Below, piece by piece: positions 13,901 to 47,553 of a stretch of DNA of 58,446 bases. This stretch comes from Candidatus Hodarchaeum mangrovi (GTDB lineage Archaea > Asgardarchaeota > Heimdallarchaeia > Hodarchaeales > Hodarchaeaceae). A program made the position numbers and the translations under genes. The notes beneath the pieces are model-generated. The model did not search any database and was not told the origin of the DNA. It was given only the letters and a program-made list of their open reading frames with translations. Numbering within the stretch: position 1 is the stretch's first letter; every line of letters starts with the position of its first letter. Location: positions 1-58,446 of the forward strand of contig JAEOUE010000031.1 in NCBI GenBank assembly GCA_016839515.1. The letters run 5' to 3'.

Positions 13901-14004
13901 CGGGCCCTACGAGATTTGAACCCGCGACCTCTCTCGAGAAGATATGAATAACCAACTCTTTTGCTCCGGAGGCAAGCGCTCTGTCCATACTGAGCTAAGG
14001 GCCC
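13901..14004 (-). tRNA. tRNA-Arg(CCG) with 29-nt intron at non-canonical 41/42 (13933-13961)
   Basis: Cloverleaf GGGCCCT...AGGGCCC, anticodon arm CTTGC-CTCCGGA-GCA|AG restored by intron removal; relaxed BHB. Confidence 0.9.
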
Positions 14005-14036
14005 TTGTTATATATTTAAATAAGATCATTGAAGAA

Positions 14037-14141
14037 CGGACTCGAGGGGATTTGAACCCCCGAACCCTCTGCTTTCTCAACGAACTTTAGTAAATTTTCA
14101 TATAGGAGGCAGATGCTCTATCCATGCTGAGCTACGAGTCC
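14037..14141 (-). tRNA. tRNA-Arg(CCT) with 29-nt canonical 37/38 intron (14074-14102)
   Basis: GGACTCG acceptor, TCTGC-CTCCTA|A-GCAGA, TTCAAAT loop. Confidence 0.92.
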
Positions 14142-14171
14142 AAATTTCGTAATATATATTATTTAGGAAAA

Positions 14172-14249
14172 TGGCGGATCCGAGGGGATTTGAACCCCCG
14201 GCCTGCGACTTAGAAGGCCGCCGCTCTGTCCATGCTGAGCTACGGATCC
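14172..14249 (-). tRNA. tRNA-Arg(TCT), intronless, CCA encoded
   Basis: GGATCCG acceptor, GCGGC-CTTCTAA-GTCGC, ends GCCA. Confidence 0.95.
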
Positions 14250-33948: not shown

Positions 33949-34050
33949 TGCGCCGATCGGGATTTTCAATCAATTTCAGAAGAAACTCAAGTTTGAACCC
34001 GAGTTACAGGCTTGGGAAGCCCGAGTCCTACCAGACTAGACTATCGGCGC
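33949..34050 (-). tRNA. tRNA-Gly(CCC) with 29-nt T-loop intron at 59/60 (33963-33991)
   Basis: GCGCCGA acceptor, CGGGC-TTCCCAA-GCCTG; BHB TTCA-AAC / TGAA-AAT. Confidence 0.92.
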
Positions 34051-34159: not shown

Positions 34160-34903
34160 TTATCGAAACAGATCTTCTTCACGATTTCGAATTAAATCTA
34201 ATGCTGATCCCTCATCTTTAGAAAAAGAAGCTCCACGGACAATAATCACAGGTGTTCCTTCATTTGCTTGTCCCATTACAATGCCTGCAGCTGCTGCGAT
34301 TTCATCAGCCCGAGCAATGATCGTTGATTTCAATTCATAACCAAATAAATCAAATTTTCCTCTCATATCTAATAAAGGATGCATTCCAGCAACTCCAATG
34401 GCAACATTCACTGTTCCTACTCTTAAAGGACGTCCAAATGTATCGGATATTATAACAGCAACTTCCTTGTTAAATTTTTCTTTTAAATACTCTTTAATTT
34501 TTCTTGCTGATTTATCAGGATCCTTAGGAAGAGATATAACCGTTTCTCCAGGAGTATTGGATTTATCTATTCCACTATTTGCACAAATGAATCCATGTTT
34601 TGTTGCTGTAATTAAAACTTTATTATTCATACGGACTATTTCATTACTCTCCTTTAATATGACTTCAATTTTTCTAGGGTCTTTATCCTGAATTTCTCCG
34701 ATTCTTATTGCAAAAGGACTTGGTTCAATTTCATTTAAATCATAAACTTGGTTTTCAGCTTTTGAAACAATCGTATGAGCTATAACTAGAACGTCACCAT
34801 TCTCAATAGTGATTTTTTGTAATTCCTCTCCAAGGATTTGTTCAATTTTATCCCCAGGATAAATTAATGGAAAATTTTCTAATGGAAAAATAGTTATGGT
34901 CAT
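34160..34903 (-). CDS. cofE: coenzyme F420-0:L-glutamate ligase
   Basis: VSKAE, ANSGIDKSN, DPDKSA, DTFGRPLRVG, ADEIAAAA, EDLFR. Confidence 0.93.
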   Translation of the reverse strand: MTITIFPLENFPLIYPGDKIEQILGEELQKITIENGDVLVIAHTIVSKAENQVYDLNEIEPSPFAIRIGEIQDKDPRKIEVILKESNEIVRMNNKVLITATKHGFICANSGIDKSNTPGETVISLPKDPDKSARKIKEYLKEKFNKEVAVIISDTFGRPLRVGTVNVAIGVAGMHPLLDMRGKFDLFGYELKSTIIARADEIAAAAGIVMGQANEGTPVIIVRGASFSKDEGSALDLIRNREEDLFR

Positions 34904-34938
34904 TTTTAGATATACCCTTCGTTTAAGTGTCAGAAAAT

Positions 34939-35004
34939 TAGCCTCAGACCGCTCATCGTTCAACATATTCTATTCTGAACTATAAAAATTCTCATCATGG
35001 GCTA
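34939..35004 (-). ncRNA. box C/D guide sRNA; D guide matches SSU rRNA 1398-1409 region
   Basis: TAGCC/GGCTA terminal stem, C ATGATGA, D' CAGA, C' ATGTTGA, 12-nt guide ACGATGAGCGGT, D CTGA. Confidence 0.85.
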
Positions 35005-35038: not shown

Positions 35039-35803
35039 CTATATCCCAAATTCTGATGGACGTGTTTTAACTTCTTGAGCTAAGTCTTGTAATAGTTTCA
35101 TAACTTTTTCAGTCTGAGAAGTGTTTCCTACCTTTTGGTATTTGTCATGTGCTTGTTTAAGTAAATCTATTGCCTCTTTCATATTCTCACGAGCACTTAT
35201 TAATGACTTAGCTCTTCTGTAAAGTGCATGAGCTTCATACCTAGTTGGATCTTCACGTCCCATTCGAAATTCTTCAACAGCTTTCTCTAAATAATATGCT
35301 TTGTCGAAATCGGATTCCATAGCAGCAGCTCTCTGTACAAAAGATCGAGCTCTAGCTCGAGCAGCTTCCATTTCCATACCTGTGGTTTGATATAATGCTC
35401 CCGCTGATTCAAATAATCTTGCAGATTCTATGAACTCACTATTTTGAGCCTTTGACTTGGCTAACTCTACTTGTGTTTGTGCTTGAATAGTTCGAGCCTG
35501 TCTGGCCTCTTCCATGAATCCTTCGGTTGAAAAAGTAACATTTGCCTTACCAAAACATCGAATAGCTTCAAGAAAATTAGATTCAAGCATGTAAATATAT
35601 CCTTGTGAACATAATCCATATGCTTCGGATCGTTTAGCAAGTTTTTTTTGATCTCCTCCTAAAAACAACTTTGATGAGTTAACAAATGATCCTTCGGCAT
35701 CTGAATAACGTTGTGATTCATAAAATACCATGCCACGGTCAAATTCTTCTTGAGCTTTTTTGATTTTATTGGACTTGAATATTGGCATGAAATAAACCTC
35801 CAA
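35039..35803 (-). CDS. TPR/SNAP-like helical repeat protein
   Basis: Repeats of Y/F.EA...F..A...Y/F...G (e.g. FIESARLFESAGALYQTTG). Confidence 0.7.
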   Translation of the reverse strand: MEVYFMPIFKSNKIKKAQEEFDRGMVFYESQRYSDAEGSFVNSSKLFLGGDQKKLAKRSEAYGLCSQGYIYMLESNFLEAIRCFGKANVTFSTEGFMEEARQARTIQAQTQVELAKSKAQNSEFIESARLFESAGALYQTTGMEMEAARARARSFVQRAAAMESDFDKAYYLEKAVEEFRMGREDPTRYEAHALYRRAKSLISARENMKEAIDLLKQAHDKYQKVGNTSQTEKVMKLLQDLAQEVKTRPSEFGI

Positions 35804-36199
35804 TTGAGATGTTTCTTACTATAACCCAATTGAATGCATATATTGTACTGTTATATATACAAGTTTTTTTTAAAATTATTAAAACCTTCTTATAAATTAA
35901 CTAGTCCAAAAAGCTTGTTAAAATTTTCTTTCTTTATCAATATAAAGAGATTTCAAGCCTGATTTTTAGGAACATCATTAATACATTTCTTTTATAATAA
36001 TTTTAATAATATTAGGCTGATTAATTGACTATTTAAAATTATTTCATTAGTACAAAGAGAATAAGAAAAGATAAATAAAGCCTCCCTTGTATGAATCCTC
36101 CTAGACTAGAATACTTTGGTATTTCATCTTGATACTATCCAGTTCGAATGAAATAGATTTATTATTCATAAAGAGTTTATGCTTCTAGGTGGAACAATC

Positions 36200-39100
36200 G
36201 TGAAGAATATTCAAAGGATTATTTCGTTAAATTTCTTTGTTATCCTAATTATATCAACTATCGCTATTAGTGCAGTCGATTACAGCTCATTAGCCACAAA
36301 AAAAGATTATAAAGGATTGTCCACGATACATACATTACGTAATAAGCATTTTTCGCAGTATTCTATAGCACAATTTACTAATAAAGAAGATTTTACTAGA
36401 ATTTCGTTAACTAAAAGCCTATCACAGATTCTTAATGGCAGTGCTCCTTATAATTTCTTTCCCGGGGACATCATTCGCTTTACAAATCGATTTACAATTC
36501 CTGGTCAAATTACGACTAATTATGCGTTATTAAATCATACAGTCTCTATTTTTTTAATAAAACAAGGGACTTTAAATCCCACTAATCCAACTTACTTCAT
36601 CAAAAATTCTACGACTAATGGAACTCAAGTTGGAAAATTTAAACTTACAGAAAACCCTGCAGAAGGATTTATTGATACTACGATAACTATCCCCGATTTA
36701 ACCACTCTTGAAGTAACTTATGGGATTCTACCTGGAGATAACGTAACTATTTACCAATATCTTGCTCCTTCACTAGGTTCGGGTGCTGAAGGCGTCCCAC
36801 CTTATGCTTACACGGATAATTTCACTCTAAGTGCGTTTCCAATCCTTTCCATTGGTACAGGTTTCGTGAATCCAGCTAGTGGTGACAATCAATTTCGACA
36901 GGGAGAAAATGCTAGTTTCATTTTAACAGCCTTATCAGGATCGGATCCAATTGACAATACTTCAATCAGTGCTACGATTCATTATAATAGCTCTGAGGTT
37001 CAAATAGCTAATACAACAGGATTGGGAATTATTTGTTATCTTCGAGATGTCACTACTGGTCTTCCAAGGACTTCAACCGATTCAAATGGACAATTACGAA
37101 TTATTGTTGTAACAACTTACCCAACCACGACTGAAGATAATTTTTTCATTAATATAACAGGTGATTTTATTGGTACAAGTGTCTATTCACCCGAAATTCC
37201 TGAATCAAGATATGCAAATAATAAAGCTCAATTCACAATAAGCAATGAGATGGATACAGCATCGATTACAATCACATTAGTAACTCCATCTGATTATATA
37301 CGTCCACCTAATGTAAATTTCACCATCGTTACAGCAAGAATTGCTATTATATACGCGTATACTGGAGCAACTTATTATATCCCAAATATTCCTGTACGAG
37401 CAACACTTGATACATATCCCACAGGAGTGAGTTTGTCAATTGCATCAGGATATACCAATAATGGTTCTGGATGGGCTTTAACAGATAGTTCTGGATATGT
37501 TGAATTTAATATCACTTCAGGATTTCCCATTCCTTATCAGTTAAAGACTCCAACAATTACTGTAGAAGCAGATTTGGCCAACCCATCTGCTCCTGGAGGT
37601 TCATACCCCTCAGGTCCTCCGAATGCTCCACATCGCTTTATTAGGGGGTCAGGGGACAAAATCCTAATCAGTGATAATCAAATGATTAGTATAGATCCTG
37701 AATTCTTAATTGGGCAGATTGGACTTTATTCCTATAATGCAAGCATTATACATCCTGGTGAAAGTGCAGTTTTAGAATTTGAGATTAATTCAAGTCAAGC
37801 TCCCTTAATTAACTTTGTTAAAGTGCCAGTAAAATTTGGACTTAATCAGGCAATTGCAGGTGTTTCTCTTTCAATTAGTGGATATACTCCTTATGGGAAT
37901 GGTTATTATCTTACTGATGCAAATGGGCGAATCAAAATAACAGTATCCTCTACTTACCTTATAACTCCAGAAATAATTCAAAATGTGATATTAGATATTA
38001 CTATAGACTTTGAAAACGATTCTAATGTTCGATGGATGGGAACATTTCATAGTGGAACAGCAACCTTTGCAGAGTATGATAAATCTTGGTCTACAAGTCA
38101 ATATTCTAGCTTAATTATAAACCCTCAATTTATTCTAAGCAATATCATCTTATCAACAACAAATGAGACAGGTGACACTAGAATTCGGCCAGGAGACGGC
38201 TTAGAAGTTACTTTCAAAGTTCAGGAACAGGGAACAGGCATAGCACTAGGTAGAGTTCCCGTTAATGTGTCCTTAATGAGTACGTATGCAGGGGTATCGC
38301 TGAGTATTGGTTCTACTCATGGGGGTTCTGCTGGGCCAAATTACTATTATTCTACTTTAACGGGATTAGTTTCTATTATCTTGAGCACTACATATGGAAT
38401 CACACCTAAAAATCTTCTAATCCAATTAAATGCAACTGCAGACTTTGCAAATGATTTATTAGATGTTTGGCATATTGGTCAAATTCCCTCCTCTGGAAAT
38501 TTTCGCTCAAACTTCTCTTATTCATATTTAATCCAAAATATTAACGTTGATCCTCAGTACTTCACAGGTATTATTTATATTCCATCTGATAACCAGCCTG
38601 TTACCCCTGTTCAGCAGACCGAAAATTTTATTATAGAATATGAGTTAAAGCTTAGGTACCAGTCATTAGATAATTTTCCATCAATTGATGATATTGTAAT
38701 TTCGATATTAGTAAATAATTCAAATCCTTCTGTCTATAATATGGCCGTAATCCCTTCAACAAGTCAAGATTCTTCAGCAAGTAGCGTAACGTTTCAATTA
38801 CAGACCAATGCAACTGGAGAAACACCAGAAGGAAAATATAATATAACAGCACGTGCTGATTTTGGAGGAGGAAGCTCGCTAGTATACAATATTACACATT
38901 CGACTGTTCCATCTGGAAAACTTGCTGGCTATTGGGTTAATGGATCTCAGACAGATGCCTATTCTTATATTAATTATATTTTTGAAGTAAAAAATCAAGA
39001 TAGGATTGTTCTTCAGGTAACTGGTGTTTCGGATCCTATCCATACAGATGAAGGTTATAATCCAATTACTACAAAATATGAGGTTTATCGAACAACAACG

Positions 39101-41233
39101 ACAATCATGATATTTGGTAGTTACAAAGATAATACACTTGATCCAGTGCAAGGGAGGGATATTATCCTTGCTTATGATTATCTAGGTTTAAGCTCTCCTG
39201 TCACATTAGCTACTGTAACAACAAATACTTCAGGGGAATTTTCTCAGCCTATTTCTCTTCCAACCACAACTCCCTTGCGTGATATTATTATTTTTGGAAG
39301 AGATTCAACTAATCCGATTCCTCAAGAAGTCAGGATTAATATAACGAATATTAGGGTTGTTACTACAATTTCTCTTGCCGATTACTCTTTAAGTAGCTAT
39401 ACAGGCACCGCAATATATGTAGGAGAAACAGTTACAGCCTCTGGAACCCTTCTAGATGACCAAGGAGTGCTTATCACCTCTGTCGAATTAGCAAGCCGAC
39501 TTCGTGTAATTGGGTGGGATGGGTCTGCAGAAGTAGGAATTGCAGTAGTTGATTCTCCAGTTTCGGGTACTTACTCTATCAATTATCAAATTCCTAGCGC
39601 TTATAGTGGTTCTACCCTTAATATTCGATTAAATATTACATCCCATGCTAATCTAATCCACTTCCGCCCTACATACACACAAATCCTCCTTGATGTTTAT
39701 AATGATATTCAGCTCAATAATTGGCGTATCTATCTTCCAGCAAATGGAGGTACCCTATCATTAACCAATGGAAGTACGTTTGTCATCCCAGATGTAGCTA
39801 ACAAATCTATTGAAATCCGAGGAGAGCTGCAGGACCAAGCTAGTCGTCCTTTGGATTCTAAAGATATTAGAGATTATTGGAATGCTACAACTCAACTAAG
39901 AACATTGGGTGCTCTAGCTACCTTTAACCTTCCATATGGTTTTCCAGGATACACTAATGTTACAATAATCTGGCAATTGTATCACATTACGGATGAAGGA
40001 ACAACTTTATCTAAGAAATTTTATATTACTCTTAAATGGGAGGTTTATGACGAAACTGCACCTATTATCACAGTTGTCAGTCCAGCAGGTCTTAACTCCT
40101 CTGCACTTCCAAATAACCCGTCTACATTAATTGTTGTCGACATCACTGATCCTTTTAATAACATTGTTTCAGTAGGATTAAACCCTTCTACAGTTTATAT
40201 CTTCATTGATGGCTTTTCTACCTCAATGACTCAAACTGGCTCTAATGAATTTAGTTTTACTTGGGATACCTCCTCTGCAACTGATAAAATTTATACCATG
40301 TTTATTATAGCATATGATTTTGCCAATAATAAACAAAATATTACATTACTTGTAGTCATTGATATATTAGCACCTATTGGAACACTCGATGTTACTCAGA
40401 ATACAAATAATTACGTAAATATCACCTCGGGAGGTGATGTTATAATTTCTGGGACGCTTACTGAAGCTGTGTCGTCTACTGGTAGATCTAGTGGTCTAGA
40501 TGAATCAACAATATACCTTCAGATTATCAACAACACTGGTTTTACTATTGTAAATAGACTTGTTACTTTAACTGGAGGAACAGTTGAAGAACGATGGACG
40601 ATCATTTTAAACGCTGATGATCTTGAAAATATGGCACGAAATCCAGCTTTTATTTCTACATCTGAAAATTGGAAAATTCGTTTAGTGTTTAATGACCTTG
40701 CAGGAAATTCAGACTTTAAAGAGCTAGATGTAAAATTAGACAAAGATAATCCAACTATCACAATAGTAGAAGGCGAAGGCACACCTTCAATTGTAACTGA
40801 ACCATTTAGCTTTAATATTTCCCTTATAGATGATCAGAGTGGGATTAATTCTTCCACTATCTTTATACAAATTTATAATAACAACGATCAACTTATTGAT
40901 ACTATAATAAGCCCTAATATAGTAATTGAGCAAAAAACAACAAGTATATATCAGGTATCATATAATCCTGAACTATTACCCTCAGGAGTTTATTATATTC
41001 AAGCTCATGTATTTGATAATACAGGAAATACCAACTCTGTCAATGATGAAGTGTTTTTCATACCCCCTCGGCCCTCAACAACTACACCAACTACAACAAG
41101 TCCTCCAAATGGAGGCCCTTCTTTGGGTGGTGTGAATTTATTTACATTTATTATATTTGATATTCTAGCTCTTGCAGGGGGAGTTATTCTTGCCATAGTA
41201 TATGAAAAATATCGAAAACCAAAGATAACCTAA
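36200..41233 (+). CDS. giant cell-surface protein with Ig-like repeats and C-terminal TM anchor
   Basis: N-terminal signal/TM, repeated VPV...GVSLSI...TD.NG units, many N-x-S/T sites, PT-rich linker, TM plus KYRKPK tail. Confidence 0.85.
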   Translation: MKNIQRIISLNFFVILIISTIAISAVDYSSLATKKDYKGLSTIHTLRNKHFSQYSIAQFTNKEDFTRISLTKSLSQILNGSAPYNFFPGDIIRFTNRFTIPGQITTNYALLNHTVSIFLIKQGTLNPTNPTYFIKNSTTNGTQVGKFKLTENPAEGFIDTTITIPDLTTLEVTYGILPGDNVTIYQYLAPSLGSGAEGVPPYAYTDNFTLSAFPILSIGTGFVNPASGDNQFRQGENASFILTALSGSDPIDNTSISATIHYNSSEVQIANTTGLGIICYLRDVTTGLPRTSTDSNGQLRIIVVTTYPTTTEDNFFINITGDFIGTSVYSPEIPESRYANNKAQFTISNEMDTASITITLVTPSDYIRPPNVNFTIVTARIAIIYAYTGATYYIPNIPVRATLDTYPTGVSLSIASGYTNNGSGWALTDSSGYVEFNITSGFPIPYQLKTPTITVEADLANPSAPGGSYPSGPPNAPHRFIRGSGDKILISDNQMISIDPEFLIGQIGLYSYNASIIHPGESAVLEFEINSSQAPLINFVKVPVKFGLNQAIAGVSLSISGYTPYGNGYYLTDANGRIKITVSSTYLITPEIIQNVILDITIDFENDSNVRWMGTFHSGTATFAEYDKSWSTSQYSSLIINPQFILSNIILSTTNETGDTRIRPGDGLEVTFKVQEQGTGIALGRVPVNVSLMSTYAGVSLSIGSTHGGSAGPNYYYSTLTGLVSIILSTTYGITPKNLLIQLNATADFANDLLDVWHIGQIPSSGNFRSNFSYSYLIQNINVDPQYFTGIIYIPSDNQPVTPVQQTENFIIEYELKLRYQSLDNFPSIDDIVISILVNNSNPSVYNMAVIPSTSQDSSASSVTFQLQTNATGETPEGKYNITARADFGGGSSLVYNITHSTVPSGKLAGYWVNGSQTDAYSYINYIFEVKNQDRIVLQVTGVSDPIHTDEGYNPITTKYEVYRTTTTIMIFGSYKDNTLDPVQGRDIILAYDYLGLSSPVTLATVTTNTSGEFSQPISLPTTTPLRDIIIFGRDSTNPIPQEVRINITNIRVVTTISLADYSLSSYTGTAIYVGETVTASGTLLDDQGVLITSVELASRLRVIGWDGSAEVGIAVVDSPVSGTYSINYQIPSAYSGSTLNIRLNITSHANLIHFRPTYTQILLDVYNDIQLNNWRIYLPANGGTLSLTNGSTFVIPDVANKSIEIRGELQDQASRPLDSKDIRDYWNATTQLRTLGALATFNLPYGFPGYTNVTIIWQLYHITDEGTTLSKKFYITLKWEVYDETAPIITVVSPAGLNSSALPNNPSTLIVVDITDPFNNIVSVGLNPSTVYIFIDGFSTSMTQTGSNEFSFTWDTSSATDKIYTMFIIAYDFANNKQNITLLVVIDILAPIGTLDVTQNTNNYVNITSGGDVIISGTLTEAVSSTGRSSGLDESTIYLQIINNTGFTIVNRLVTLTGGTVEERWTIILNADDLENMARNPAFISTSENWKIRLVFNDLAGNSDFKELDVKLDKDNPTITIVEGEGTPSIVTEPFSFNISLIDDQSGINSSTIFIQIYNNNDQLIDTIISPNIVIEQKTTSIYQVSYNPELLPSGVYYIQAHVFDNTGNTNSVNDEVFFIPPRPSTTTPTTTSPPNGGPSLGGVNLFTFIIFDILALAGGVILAIVYEKYRKPKIT

Positions 41234-43619: not shown

Positions 43620-44681
43620 GTGGAAAAAATGAGCAAACTTGACACTAAAGAAAAAGACTTCACCGGAGACGATCTCTCATATGAAATGCTTGAAGTAAAT
43701 GATGTTGCCAGAGCATATCAACAGATTATGGGAGAAATCCGTAAAGTCTATATAGGAAGAACCGAGATTTTTGAAATGTTATGGATTGCAATGTTAACTG
43801 GGAAACATGTCTATCTAGAAGGTGTTCCAGGGATTGGAAAGACATACATGGCAAATTCCTTCTCAAAATGTCTCGGAACAGCTTTTAGCCGTATTCAGTT
43901 CACTCCTGATATGCTTCCTTCAGACATTGTGGGAACTAATATTTTTAATCCGAAAACAGGGACTTTTCGTCTAAAAAAAGGCCCTATTTTTGGAAATGTT
44001 ATCCTTGCTGACGAAGTTAACCGTGCCCCTCCAAAAACTCAATCTGCAATGCTTGAAGCGATGGCAGAAGGGCAGGTTTCAATCGAAGGTGAAACCCATA
44101 AACTTGAAAAACCTTTTGTAGTATTAGCCACAGCAAATCCTGTTGAACAGGAAGGTACCTATCCTCTTCCTGAAGCACAACTTGATCGATTCATGATTAA
44201 AGTTATAATTCACCATTCTTCTCCTGAAGATGAATTGAGAATTATTAAATTTAAAAATGAACCTGTACCTGCAACTATCAAACAAGTTGTTTCACCTCAA
44301 ACTATTGTTGCTATGATGGAAGTTGTAAAGCGTGTTTATGTATGTCCAGAGATACTAGAAATGATACGTGATATTACTGTTGCCACGCGAACGGATCCCA
44401 GGTTGGTTTTGGGCTGTTCACCTCGTGGTAGCGAGAGTTTACTGTTGGCTGGAAAGTCAAGAGCTGCGATCCATGGACGTGATTATGTTATTCCTGATGA
44501 TATTTTGTTGATGATTCCTCACATTGTTCATCATCGTGTTATTCTCAAACCCGAAGCAGAGCTTGAGGGTATCACACAGATCCGTATCTCTGAGGATATT
44601 CGTGATAATATCGTAATTCCCGTTGACCCAACCGAAGAAGAAATGGTTTATGAAGAATATGTTGAAGAGGTAGAAGAATAG
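43620..44681 (+). CDS. moxR: MoxR-family AAA+ ATPase
   Basis: [52 protein letters not shown]. Confidence 0.96.
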
Positions 44682-44724
44682 TCTAATTATAATATTCACC
44701 TCCCTCTATGTATAAAAAAAATAG

Positions 44725-46194
44725 GTGAAAACATCGATGCTTTCCTCTCGTGGTGCTTTTATAGCAATAGGCGGAATTCTTTTACTTTCCGTTGGTTTAA
44801 GTGCTAAAGGTATTGGCACAGTTACTACAATGATCCCGATTTTATTTGCAGGAGAAGGTTTTACACCAAATCCCTCTGAAAACACTACATCAGGATTAGA
44901 ATGGTTAGAAGCCTTTGAAATCTTGAATGAATCTCCAATTGTTGATTATGGTATGTTTCTAGGTACACTTCTCGTTCTAGCAAGTGTTATTGGTTTACCC
45001 TTCTTCAGAGCTTCGTCCAATGCATCTCTAATCAGAGTTACAAGAAAAGTGGATAGAGAGAAGGCATTTGCTGGGGAATATATCCATGTTACAGTACGTA
45101 TAGAAAATACTGGTATGAGGAGATTAGACTTTCTAGAAATTTATGACGCAATCCCAGATATGTTTGAAATTGTTCTTGGTGAAAATTTCATTATTACTCA
45201 ACTTTCTGGTAAAGAAACTAAAGAATTCTCTTATATTATCCAAGTTAGCACAAGAGGAGTTTATCGTATTGGACCGACAAAGGTCATAATCCATGATCGA
45301 CTTGGATTTTATTTTGAAGAAAATGTTCGCCATTTTTACACTGAAATTCTTTGTTATCCATCATATGAAGATATTCGTCGAATGGAAGCCCTGAGTAAGC
45401 GTCGACAACAGGGAAAAATGTTTGGGGCCCATAAAACCAGATTGAAAGGAATGGGAGATGATTTTCATGCTCTAGCACGTTATTATCCAGGTGCACCCTT
45501 CAAATCACTAGATTGGAAAGCTTTCAGTCGAACTGGAGAACTTATGGTTCGAGAGTTTGAAGCAGAAAAAAATATTCGTATGGTTGTTTTTTTGGATCAT
45601 AGCGGTAGCATGGGAGCAGGAATACCATATAACACTAAACTTGATTTTGCTATACGTTCTACTATGCTTGTCATGAAGATGGCAGAGGAAAGACAGGATC
45701 TTTTTGGTCTTATTACTTATTCAGATCGACCTACATCGTTTATCAAGCCTGGTGGGGGAAAAGCAATGTTTTTTCAGCTCTTAGAAATTCTTGCACTTGT
45801 TGAACCACAGGGGAGATCAGATCCCCTAGCAGCAGTAGATTTTGTTATGCAACGTGTTCCTAGAGCTTCGTTTTATGTATTTTTGACTGATTTGGAGTCT
45901 TCTGATTCAGAAATATTCACAGAAGCTGCAAAACGAGCAAGATCAATGAAAAATCATATTACAGTTATTTCGCCTTTTGGCCCATTATTTGAAACCAAAC
46001 TAACAGATCTAACTGCTACTGAACGAGCTATTGCAGAAGCGATTTTTGAAGAATATCTTGGATATAGGAAACAAGTAGAAGATCGTCTTCGTGGTATAGG
46101 TGTTGAAATCATTAATGTTGGTCCCGATGATATCTTACCGAATGTCATTAAAACATATACAGAAGGAAAAAAGATAGGAAAAGGAATGGTGTGA
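44725..46194 (+). CDS. DUF58 (vWA-like) membrane protein, MoxR partner
   Basis: RGVY.IGP, G.GDDF..L..Y.PG, DWKA.SR, MVREFE.E, D.SGSM MIDAS. Confidence 0.92.
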   Translation: MKTSMLSSRGAFIAIGGILLLSVGLSAKGIGTVTTMIPILFAGEGFTPNPSENTTSGLEWLEAFEILNESPIVDYGMFLGTLLVLASVIGLPFFRASSNASLIRVTRKVDREKAFAGEYIHVTVRIENTGMRRLDFLEIYDAIPDMFEIVLGENFIITQLSGKETKEFSYIIQVSTRGVYRIGPTKVIIHDRLGFYFEENVRHFYTEILCYPSYEDIRRMEALSKRRQQGKMFGAHKTRLKGMGDDFHALARYYPGAPFKSLDWKAFSRTGELMVREFEAEKNIRMVVFLDHSGSMGAGIPYNTKLDFAIRSTMLVMKMAEERQDLFGLITYSDRPTSFIKPGGGKAMFFQLLEILALVEPQGRSDPLAAVDFVMQRVPRASFYVFLTDLESSDSEIFTEAAKRARSMKNHITVISPFGPLFETKLTDLTATERAIAEAIFEEYLGYRKQVEDRLRGIGVEIINVGPDDILPNVIKTYTEGKKIGKGMV

Positions 46195-46197
46195 AAA

Positions 46198-47553
46198 ATG
46201 CCCGCAGGACAACGTACAGCTCATTTTTTCAGAATTTTATATTTTAGCTTATTCATATTTGTATGCCTATTAATCTTTTTTCCAGGATTGACCATCGATC
46301 CTTCCATTATAGATATTTCCCAAGTTTTTAAAATTTTGGATTATATAATGATTATTGTACAGCTTCTTGTTTCATTGCTAGGAACGTTGGTCATTCAAAT
46401 TACTTATGCACTTCTGTCTGTAAAATCTCGTTTACCTTTCATAGGAGACTCGGCTTTTGGTGCAATCGATGGTTCTGATATCCAAACGCAAATCACTGCT
46501 CTTTTAAATCCTCAAAATAATTTATTTCCCCATTCTAGTATAGCTAATATTGGAGAAGAAGTAATTACTGATTTGTTCAACTTTTTTGGAGCAACAATTA
46601 TTCTCATCTTAATACCTATAGCCATTTTATCTGGCATTGGTTTTCTTCGAGAAGGTGATACTAAACTAGCTATTTACTCTTTCTTGGGTTTCCAATTAAT
46701 TATAATTATAGCTATTTTTACCGAAAATATTCTTATATCAACAGTAATTAACTCAAATAGTTTACTAGATTTACTTTTCAGCCCTTTGTTTACAATTGGT
46801 TTTCTTCTTTATTTACTACTTGAGGTTGCTTTTCAAACATCCTATACATTAAACATCATCGAACCAATGACCGAAAGAGAAAAGCGTATTCAAGGACATT
46901 TAAAACGGATTCGTACATTTGTACCACGAACAGAAGAACAGGAGAAAGGAAAAGAACAGACTGTTCAAAGCATCCAATCAAAGAAATTTGGTCTTCTCGC
47001 TTCTAGCTACCTTCGGGAAATGGTAGAGAACCGAATATTTCGGAAAGGGGAAAAAGAACAAGATAGTAAATCCACAATGCGACTTCAATCTTATTTAGCA
47101 AATCTTCACCAGTCCGATCCTGAGGTTGAATTAAAATTAGCTGCAAAAACGGCCCAACCAGATATTTCAGCATTAATGAAACATTTTATTCCAGCAATGA
47201 TTTTTAGAGTCGTAGCAGTAATTCTGCTATCTTACATTATAATGGCACCCGAAGGATTATTAAATATCTTTGTTAAAGCAGCCTTTCCTGCTTTATTAGA
47301 CAGTTTAGAATTATCTCAACCAGAATTCCGAACAATAGCAATAATAAATGTTGCTCTATTATTCATCCTAATTGGTGCTATTCTGCATTATCTATCAAGT
47401 GGAAGGACTGCAAAAATTATTGAAAGAGTTGTTCAACAAATAGATACCATTGTTGAATTTGATAGAGGCCCTAAAACATCTACTTCAGCAGAATCCATTG
47501 AAGAAGAAAAAGAGGGTATAGCTGAACCAGTGAAAGAAGAAGAAATCAGTTAA
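46198..47553 (+). CDS. hypothetical polytopic membrane protein
   Basis: About seven TMs, central cytoplasmic helical loop, acidic tail; operonic. Confidence 0.75.
   Translation: MPAGQRTAHFFRILYFSLFIFVCLLIFFPGLTIDPSIIDISQVFKILDYIMIIVQLLVSLLGTLVIQITYALLSVKSRLPFIGDSAFGAIDGSDIQTQITALLNPQNNLFPHSSIANIGEEVITDLFNFFGATIILILIPIAILSGIGFLREGDTKLAIYSFLGFQLIIIIAIFTENILISTVINSNSLLDLLFSPLFTIGFLLYLLLEVAFQTSYTLNIIEPMTEREKRIQGHLKRIRTFVPRTEEQEKGKEQTVQSIQSKKFGLLASSYLREMVENRIFRKGEKEQDSKSTMRLQSYLANLHQSDPEVELKLAAKTAQPDISALMKHFIPAMIFRVVAVILLSYIIMAPEGLLNIFVKAAFPALLDSLELSQPEFRTIAIINVALLFILIGAILHYLSSGRTAKIIERVVQQIDTIVEFDRGPKTSTSAESIEEEKEGIAEPVKEEEIS

Follow-up and report, generated by a model that had tools for sequence, protein, structure and literature searches.

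Eukaryotic snoRNAs descend from archaeal box C/D guide RNAs, and the closest relatives of eukaryotes are the Asgard archaea. In the sR families of Pyrococcus, Sulfolobus, Pyrobaculum and Methanocaldococcus, these sRNAs are ~50-70 nt long, carry ~12-nt guides and RUGAUGA/CUGA boxes, and have a short terminal stem, an internal D'/C' pair and an intergenic or gene-adjoining location (consensus according to PMC4644070). PMC4644070 counts 262 double guides among 489 archaeal sRNAs, their targets lying no more than 100 nt apart. To judge from titles and abstracts, among which no catalogue of Asgard box C/D sRNAs was found, the guide RNAs of Asgard archaea have hardly been described. The locus described here is very probably a further box C/D guide RNA and resembles the archaeal sR families in its total length, guide lengths, C and D boxes, terminal stem and location, with a candidate internal D'/C' pair. 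It differs from them in matching no curated family, in having a D' spacer of 14 nt, in the mismatches of its CAGA and AUGUUGA boxes, and in belonging to a mesophile-like Asgard host with 33% GC.

The eukaryotic RNAs most relevant to this locus are those that address the decoding centre of the small subunit, where snR70 and SNORD43 are the guides for yeast Cm1639 and human Cm1703. Cm at the position equivalent to E. coli 16S C1402 is listed for P. abyssi (Cm1376), yeast (Cm1639), human (Cm1703) and E. coli in Table 4 of PMC7005279, and in Arabidopsis the equivalent 18S Cm1645 is guided by AtU43 according to PMC11542601. A preliminary description of the present DNA had invoked methylation of C1402 by RsmI in bacteria and by a snoRNA in eukaryotes; the modification itself is borne out for both groups by the cited tables, and of the snoRNA guides they state only AtU43. 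If its D guide is aligned with 16S 1398-1407, our sRNA would address the same cytidine as U43/SNORD43, snR70 and AtU43. However, it does so with 5 consecutive pairs and a conserved A·C mismatch, and it shows no family-level similarity to them (16.6 bits against the Rfam snoU43 model, with a gathering score of 45). RsmI, the stand-alone bacterial C1402 2'-O-methyltransferase, would share the product only if the C1402 reading were true; it is a protein that recognizes the 30S subunit with no RNA guide and is unrelated to the sRNA element.

The window, that is, the whole stretch of 58,446 nucleotides analysed, has a GC content of 29-38% and encodes an archaeal exosome operon, SBDS, proteasome alpha, aIF5A, LonB and FtsZ. 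From the sequence, a compact box C/D sRNA had been claimed that has a terminal stem of 5 bp and a defined D guide; we found exactly this element on the minus strand, where it occupies 66 nt from 35004 to 34939. Its parts, from 5' to 3', are as follows.

35000..35004, minus strand: 5' half of the terminal stem, UAGCC, forming 5 bp with GGCUA at 34943-34939; the stem is in the MFE fold
34999, minus strand: unpaired C between the 5' stem and the C box, read from the sequence
34992..34998, minus strand: C box, AUGAUGA (consensus RUGAUGA), from sequence and motif scan
34978..34991, minus strand: D' guide, GAAUUUUUAUAGUU, 14 nt; N+5 is U34982 and would call for an A as target nucleotide
34974..34977, minus strand: D' box, CAGA, with 1 mismatch to CUGA, from sequence and motif scan
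34967..34973, minus strand: D'-C' loop, AUAGAAU, 7 nt, read from the sequence
34960..34966, minus strand: C' box, AUGUUGA, with 1 mismatch; its AUG is the false cofE start codon
34948..34959, minus strand: D guide, ACGAUGAGCGGU, 12 nt; its N+5 nucleotide is G34952, which gives C as the target nucleotide
34944..34947, minus strand: D box, CUGA, from sequence and motif scan; kept in relatives
34939..34943, minus strand: 3' half of the terminal stem, GGCUA; an A and then UUUU (34937-34934) come next

The canonical C and D boxes lie near the 5' and 3' ends, as expected of an archaeal C/D sRNA, and the two guide lengths, the total length and the terminal stem likewise agree with those of the archaeal class. 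The unpaired C34999 would provide the 3-nt bulge expected for a K-turn, a geometry that follows from established knowledge of this motif, while the mismatch in the C' box probably costs one of the two sheared G·A pairs. If the RNA behaves like all members of the class studied so far, L7Ae, Nop5 and fibrillarin would assemble on its C/D and C'/D' motifs, and each guide would present to the methyltransferase the target nucleotide that pairs five positions upstream of the D or D' box. None of these three proteins is encoded within the window. A CGAUGA sequence was considered as an alternative C' box and rejected, as the D guide would shrink to 5 nt. T-runs such as the one that follows the 3' stem are able to act as archaeal terminators. 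A second CUGA lies 10 nt downstream of the D box, after the UUUU (34930-34937, minus strand), and may be a terminator or processing signal or nothing.

A strict motif scan over both strands of the whole window, which asked for canonical C and D boxes, 3 or more bp of terminal stem and correctly spaced internal boxes with no more than 1-2 mismatches, returned 35004-34939 as its sole candidate, and a relaxed scan again returned this element alone. In 50 mononucleotide shuffles of the window, the mean number of candidates was 0.04 and the maximum 1. At gathering thresholds, Rfam recognized three tRNAs in the window and no C/D family. A permissive Rfam search gave 19 weak matches, all below the gathering score; 18 were to C/D-box families, 16 lay on the minus strand, and 12 of these began and ended almost where the element does. 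The best of them was snoR38, with 24.9 bits against a gathering score of 45 (E 0.054). Rfam scans of the 3' half of the sRNA gave noise only. Could the element be a chance resemblance, an A/U-rich intergenic stretch that happens to hold the motifs and makes no functional RNA? The lack of an Rfam family at threshold would fit such an explanation, and so would the fold energy, which is ordinary (z -1.56). However, unremarkable stability is expected, because the guides of a guide RNA must remain single-stranded, and a chance origin is hard to square both with the 0.04 candidates expected from a shuffled window and with the nucleotide-level conservation, described below, in five independent relatives and two reading frames. 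We consider a chance resemblance most improbable.

The sRNA lies within a 135-nt gap between two minus-strand genes, the second of which has been called with an N-terminal extension that runs into the RNA.

35039..35803, minus strand: gene of no known family, 254 aa; its stop lies 34 nt before the sRNA
34904..34966, minus strand: spurious 21-codon N-terminal extension of the cofE ORF, spanning the C' box, D guide, D box and 3' stem
34160..34903, minus strand: cofE, F420-0:gamma-glutamyl ligase (Pfam PF01996, E 1.4e-78)

The 254-aa upstream protein matched no Pfam family at E ≤ 0.001. The called cofE ORF (34160-34966, 268 aa) opens at the AUG of the C' box at 34966, whereas most of 120 listed cofE homologues are 246-248 aa long, and those that were fetched begin at a methionine in the context MxI(T/S)IFPL. 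The 247-aa orthologues begin at an MTITIFPL-type methionine, which corresponds here to 34903, 35 nt downstream of the sRNA end; the earlier suspicion that the ORF had been wrongly extended over the RNA was thus well founded. Among the matches listed, the proteins from named organisms that come closest are those of Hodarchaeales, Hodarchaeota or Heimdallarchaeota MAGs, at 70-74% for cofE and 74-80% for ribosomal protein L10e. A scan of genome contigs with cofE gave 14 loci with 43-48% identity, mostly Methanobacteriaceae; none of the 14 was from Hodarchaeales, and none held rRNA by motif search. Three of these loci (L007, L012 and L014) are on contigs labelled as Gammaproteobacteria, Steroidobacteraceae or Pseudomonadota MAGs, and their cofE genes are 43-45% identical, like the Methanobacteriaceae matches, which could reflect mis-binning or gene transfer.

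The same gene-calling error opened a view of the sRNA in related genomes. We fetched the 11 listed cofE homologues that have at least 64% identity and more than 250 aa, and in six of them the false N-terminus translates the 3' half of the sRNA, while the extensions of the other five are too short to reach it. Five of the six open with M-x-x-DERSE, namely P0003, which is 99% identical to the window, and P0018, P0034, P0061 and P0082, whose cofE is 64-68% identical. The sixth, P0064 (69%), opens with MSGLRL, which corresponds to AUGAGCGGUCUGAGGCUA of the window read in the neighbouring frame; translation from the AUG inside the D guide gives MSGLRLIF-stop in the window itself. The linker that joins the DERSE or MSGLRL motif to the start of cofE varies from relative to relative, both in length and in sequence. 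As two reading frames are involved and the linker is variable, it is the nucleotides that are conserved and not a peptide. The conserved string read from these mis-called ORFs, GAYGARCGNUCUGARG, runs from the 3' ten nucleotides of the D guide through the D box into the beginning of the 3' stem, so that this part of the RNA is conserved in five independent relatives. CUGA is forced in them by the S-E or L-R codons, and the two 5'-most positions of the D guide are variable. By back-translation, the MK.. with which the relatives' false N-termini begin may reflect AUGAAGA at the place of the C' box. The sRNA also keeps its position ~35-45 nt before cofE. Only relatives with an AUG inside the sRNA are detectable in this way, and the conservation thus seen is that of the 3' half of the RNA. 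A protein search with residues 1-40 of the over-long ORF returned 2 proteins only. Taken with the motif scan, these observations make it very likely that this Hodarchaeales-like Asgard archaeon carries a true box C/D sRNA gene here, one that has been conserved independently. With its fixed cofE synteny, the sRNA offers a probe for small-RNA-seq and a seed for a covariance model, and its recognition corrects a recurrent gene-calling error: no fewer than six database entries have cofE N-termini that extend over it.

The target of the D guide is a separate question. The preliminary description had paired this guide with the small-subunit consensus at 1398-1408 through one G-U pair and one C-A mismatch at 1403, had predicted U1403 and G1408 in the host, and had predicted that the sRNA directs Cm1402. 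For this comparison, E. coli rRNA served as a stand-in for the universal core, and the host 16S was assumed to be alike at 1398-1407. On E. coli 16S 1398-1409 (ACCGCCCGUCAC), the general pattern was recovered, with N+5 on C1402 as in the U43/snR70 class and with two further mismatches at the end distal to the conserved ten nucleotides; the exception is 1408, where E. coli has A and not G. The conserved ten D-guide nucleotides form, across 1398-1407 of the E. coli sequence, five Watson-Crick pairs, an A·C mismatch, one Watson-Crick pair, one G·U pair and two Watson-Crick pairs, which means that complementarity is interrupted. The duplex reaches -13.1 kcal/mol versus -20.9 kcal/mol for a perfect complement. 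Among shuffled guides, 51% of 500 matched the score somewhere on E. coli rRNA (13.6% under a stricter pattern) and 80% of 40 reached the same duplex energy. With the conserved ten nucleotides, the site at 16S 1398 ties on E. coli rRNA with one at 23S 2418. The published working rule for archaeal guides demands nine or more uninterrupted Watson-Crick pairs, N+5 among them (PMC4644070), and E. coli rRNA offers no site of that kind.

If the D guide nevertheless directed 16S Cm1402, it would either tolerate the A·C at 1403 and the G·U at 1405 or pair perfectly with a host that has U1403, and the sRNA would be an Asgard functional counterpart of eukaryotic U43/snR70. Such an assignment can draw on the exact placement of N+5 on C1402, on five Watson-Crick pairs from guide position 1 to the target nucleotide, on a total of eight Watson-Crick pairs and one G·U in ten, and on the stricter pattern, for which this is the sole E. 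coli rRNA site. The invariance of the guide would also follow from an invariant target; at the two places where complementarity is imperfect, the changes are transitions towards A/U, and the genome has 33% GC; and Cm occurs at this position in the organisms cited above, guided by a snoRNA in Arabidopsis. However, the pairing is at the level of chance, the run of five pairs next to a mismatch beside the target nucleotide falls short of nine, and the A that faces C1403 is present in 6 of 6 informative sequences (as the second base of the Glu codon, or as the A after AUG in P0064), which is odd if G paired better. That this A is conserved at such divergence suggests a target with U at the position, and to our knowledge C1403 is near-universal in 16S. 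Furthermore, helix 44 predictions are sparse in the seven-species archaeal survey, with none named at 1402 in the parts of PMC4644070 consulted, and H. volcanii carries no modification at the 1402 equivalent according to the consulted parts of PMC2584109. PMC3256160 does not mention positions 1402-1409. The assignment also falls short of the Rfam snoU43 gathering score, and it leaves the D' guide with another molecule or with nothing. We thus see the D-guide assignment to C1402 as an attractive guess to which the pairing gives no support, and we rate this reading as unlikely. It is similarly doubtful that the lineage closest to eukaryotes already RNA-guides decoding-centre Cm1402 while keeping an A·C and a G·U beside the target; in that case, the two imperfect pairs might make it easier for the sRNP to let go of a strand destined for the top of helix 44. 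If true, the reading would trace the U43/snR70 function of eukaryotes back to an Asgard ancestor, and the decoding-centre claim would be of interest, but the present evidence is insufficient for it. We consider it probable that the element is a real sRNA whose principal target is not C1402.

For the D' guide, an 8-nt match to the loop of H69 in the large subunit had been noted, and this match (AACUAUAA) was reproduced at E. coli 23S 1912-1919 and in Lokiarchaeum LSU; Heimdall B18G1 LSU reads AACUAUGA at this loop. H69 is a methylation hotspot in hyperthermophiles according to PMC4644070. The duplex is the best E. coli rRNA match of the D' guide and consists of 8 contiguous pairs, all A/U but one, with -5.4 kcal/mol, which is below any published threshold. 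As further targets for the D guide, 23S 2506-2515, 16S 263 and 16S 174 were discarded with at least two mismatches each. The 23S 2418-2427 site was rejected as well, since the Lokiarchaeum and Heimdall B18G1 sequences are quite different there; CGCUCAUC occurs at the 2418 site in only one LSU of the PMC7594248 alignment supplement, before the archaeal entries. Within the window, ACCGCTCAT gave 8 matches with at most one mismatch versus 5.35 expected, and the only exact one was the sRNA gene itself; therefore, no complementary target site lies inside the window.

We then compared the guide complements by eye with the LSU alignment supplement of PMC7594248, which includes Asgard sequences. While ACCGCUCAUC is absent from this alignment, CCGCUCAU occurs in it once, in Nitrosopumilus maritimus, as CACCGCUCAUUCAAACU (CACCGCUCAUUCAAACUCCGAAC). 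With the LSU of N. maritimus, the D guide would form an uninterrupted run of nine Watson-Crick pairs and, in addition, one G·U, in line with the nine-pair rule. Similarly, a 9-nt piece of the D' complement, AACUAUAAA, is found once in the same alignment, in a eukaryotic LSU, as CUCAAACUAUAAAU (CUCAAACUAUAAAUGGG). Both matches fall in the same alignment columns, in the order and with the spacing of a double guide. The locus comprises the 3' strand of a variable helix followed by a conserved UCAAACU and is homologous to E. coli 23S ~896-921. The ends of both guides fall on conserved flanks (ACC..., U, AACU): the D target ends at a conserved U, 2 nt follow, and the D' target begins at a conserved AACU. 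The variable helix co-varies between Cenarchaeum and Nitrosopumilus, and Heimdall RS678 LSU has a related strand, GCCACUCCAUCU.

On the basis of these string matches, our leading specific proposal, which we put forward tentatively, is that the sRNA may be a double guide for this one locus in LSU domain II. The stretch ACCGCUCAUY would be the partner of the D guide, with methylation at C, its fifth nucleotide; next to it, AACUAUAAAAAUUC would be the partner of the D' guide, with methylation 12 nt farther downstream, at the A that follows AACU. The sRNA would then resemble the double-guide C/D sRNAs that serve two nearby rRNA nucleotides, including their antiparallel, colinear order of targets, whereas its predicted methylated nucleotides would be only 12 nt apart. 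Several observations speak against the proposal. In Lokiarchaeum GC14_75, Heimdall B18G1 and RS678, the D target has at least three mismatches and the D' target matches just AACU or AACUA. The lead is post hoc and consists of single 8- and 9-mer string matches in two different organisms, neither of which is the host, and the probability of chance co-localization is by our estimate perhaps 5% and not 0.5%, because the D' complement begins with the conserved AACU. The locus is also not among the 23S methylation hotspots named in the parts of PMC4644070 consulted. More generally, a genuine sRNA with a target other than C1402, which is our best explanation, has to accommodate a D' spacer of 14 nt versus the usual 12, the degeneracy of both internal boxes and the lack of an Rfam family at threshold.

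tRNA is a further candidate partner of the D guide; guides directed at tRNA are known from H. volcanii (tRNA-Met Cm34 and the tRNA-Trp intron) and, according to PMC6009581, one third of Pyrobaculum sRNAs target tRNAs. As in H. volcanii, the guide is complementary to a CAU-containing anticodon loop; its N+5, however, would fall on C32 and not on C34. The candidate target would be C32 of an elongator tRNA(CAU), Met or Ile2; its C32-U36 (CUCAU) would be bound by AUGAG of the guide, and the 5' strand of its anticodon stem by CGGU. The G-rich anticodon stem of initiator tRNA excludes that tRNA as a target of the D guide. In its conserved core, the guide carries AUGAG, which complements CUCAU exactly and sets N+5 against the first C. 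Cm32 is reported in the P. abyssi initiator tRNA, and sRNA-guided Nm is described in the anticodon loops of H. volcanii tRNA-Met and tRNA-Trp (PMC2584109). However, position 37 must be a purine, which would leave the conserved G at guide position 10 unpaired, and the target is hypothetical, as the window holds only tRNA-Arg(UCU), -Arg(CCU) and -Arg(CCG) and a Gly-like element. We regard targeting of tRNA(CAU) as very unlikely.

The tRNA-Arg genes form a cluster at 13901-14249 (minus strand) with anticodons UCU, CCU and CCG, and two of them are 104-105 nt long with introns of ~30 nt after the anticodon; Rfam finds 3 of 3, while ARAGORN finds only the intron-less one. The tRNA-Gly(CCC)-like element at 33979-34045 (minus strand), called by ARAGORN, lies between a Urm1/ThiS-like gene and the 3' end of cofE. 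It scores 26.5 bits with the Rfam tRNA model (gathering score 29) over model positions 8-63, has a poor T arm, and could be a degenerate or unusual tRNA.

Finally, a real C/D-type RNA might have no rRNA or tRNA target at all and act as an orphan guide, as a chaperone of rRNA folding, or as a K-turn in the cofE leader, where the putative binding of L7Ae to the 5' leader would affect cofE expression. Guides with no complementary rRNA or tRNA sequence amount to 28% in Pyrobaculum (292 of 1052 guides; PMC6009581) and to one third of the sRNAs in seven archaea (163 of 489; PMC4644070). The kept position of the sRNA, ~35-45 nt before cofE in relatives, would suit an orphan or a leader element, and L7Ae-dependent translational regulation has been proposed (PMC5539422). 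However, a complete four-box architecture exceeds the needs of a leader K-turn, and ten guide nucleotides are kept across 64-69% cofE identity, which suggests a conserved pairing partner. An RNA of this kind without an rRNA or tRNA target seems improbable to us. The sRNA also offers a case on which to try the rules of guide-target pairing in a lineage that is mesophilic and A/U-rich. A search of full-text literature with the guide, its complement and the guide plus D box returned, among the matches listed, only a 10-mer DNA string in apparently unrelated primers.

Two further features of the window were noted. The 1684-aa ORF at 36179-41233 (plus strand) has, judging from its translation, an N-terminal hydrophobic stretch, Thr/Ser/Asn-rich repeats and a C-terminal hydrophobic anchor, and it is likely a giant surface protein. 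Farther along, at 43620-47553 (plus strand), a MoxR-type AAA ATPase (AAA_3), a DUF58/VWA protein and a 451-aa protein are encoded in a row, preceded by DUF4129 and DUF4350 proteins, an arrangement that resembles a cluster of the MoxR-VWA type.
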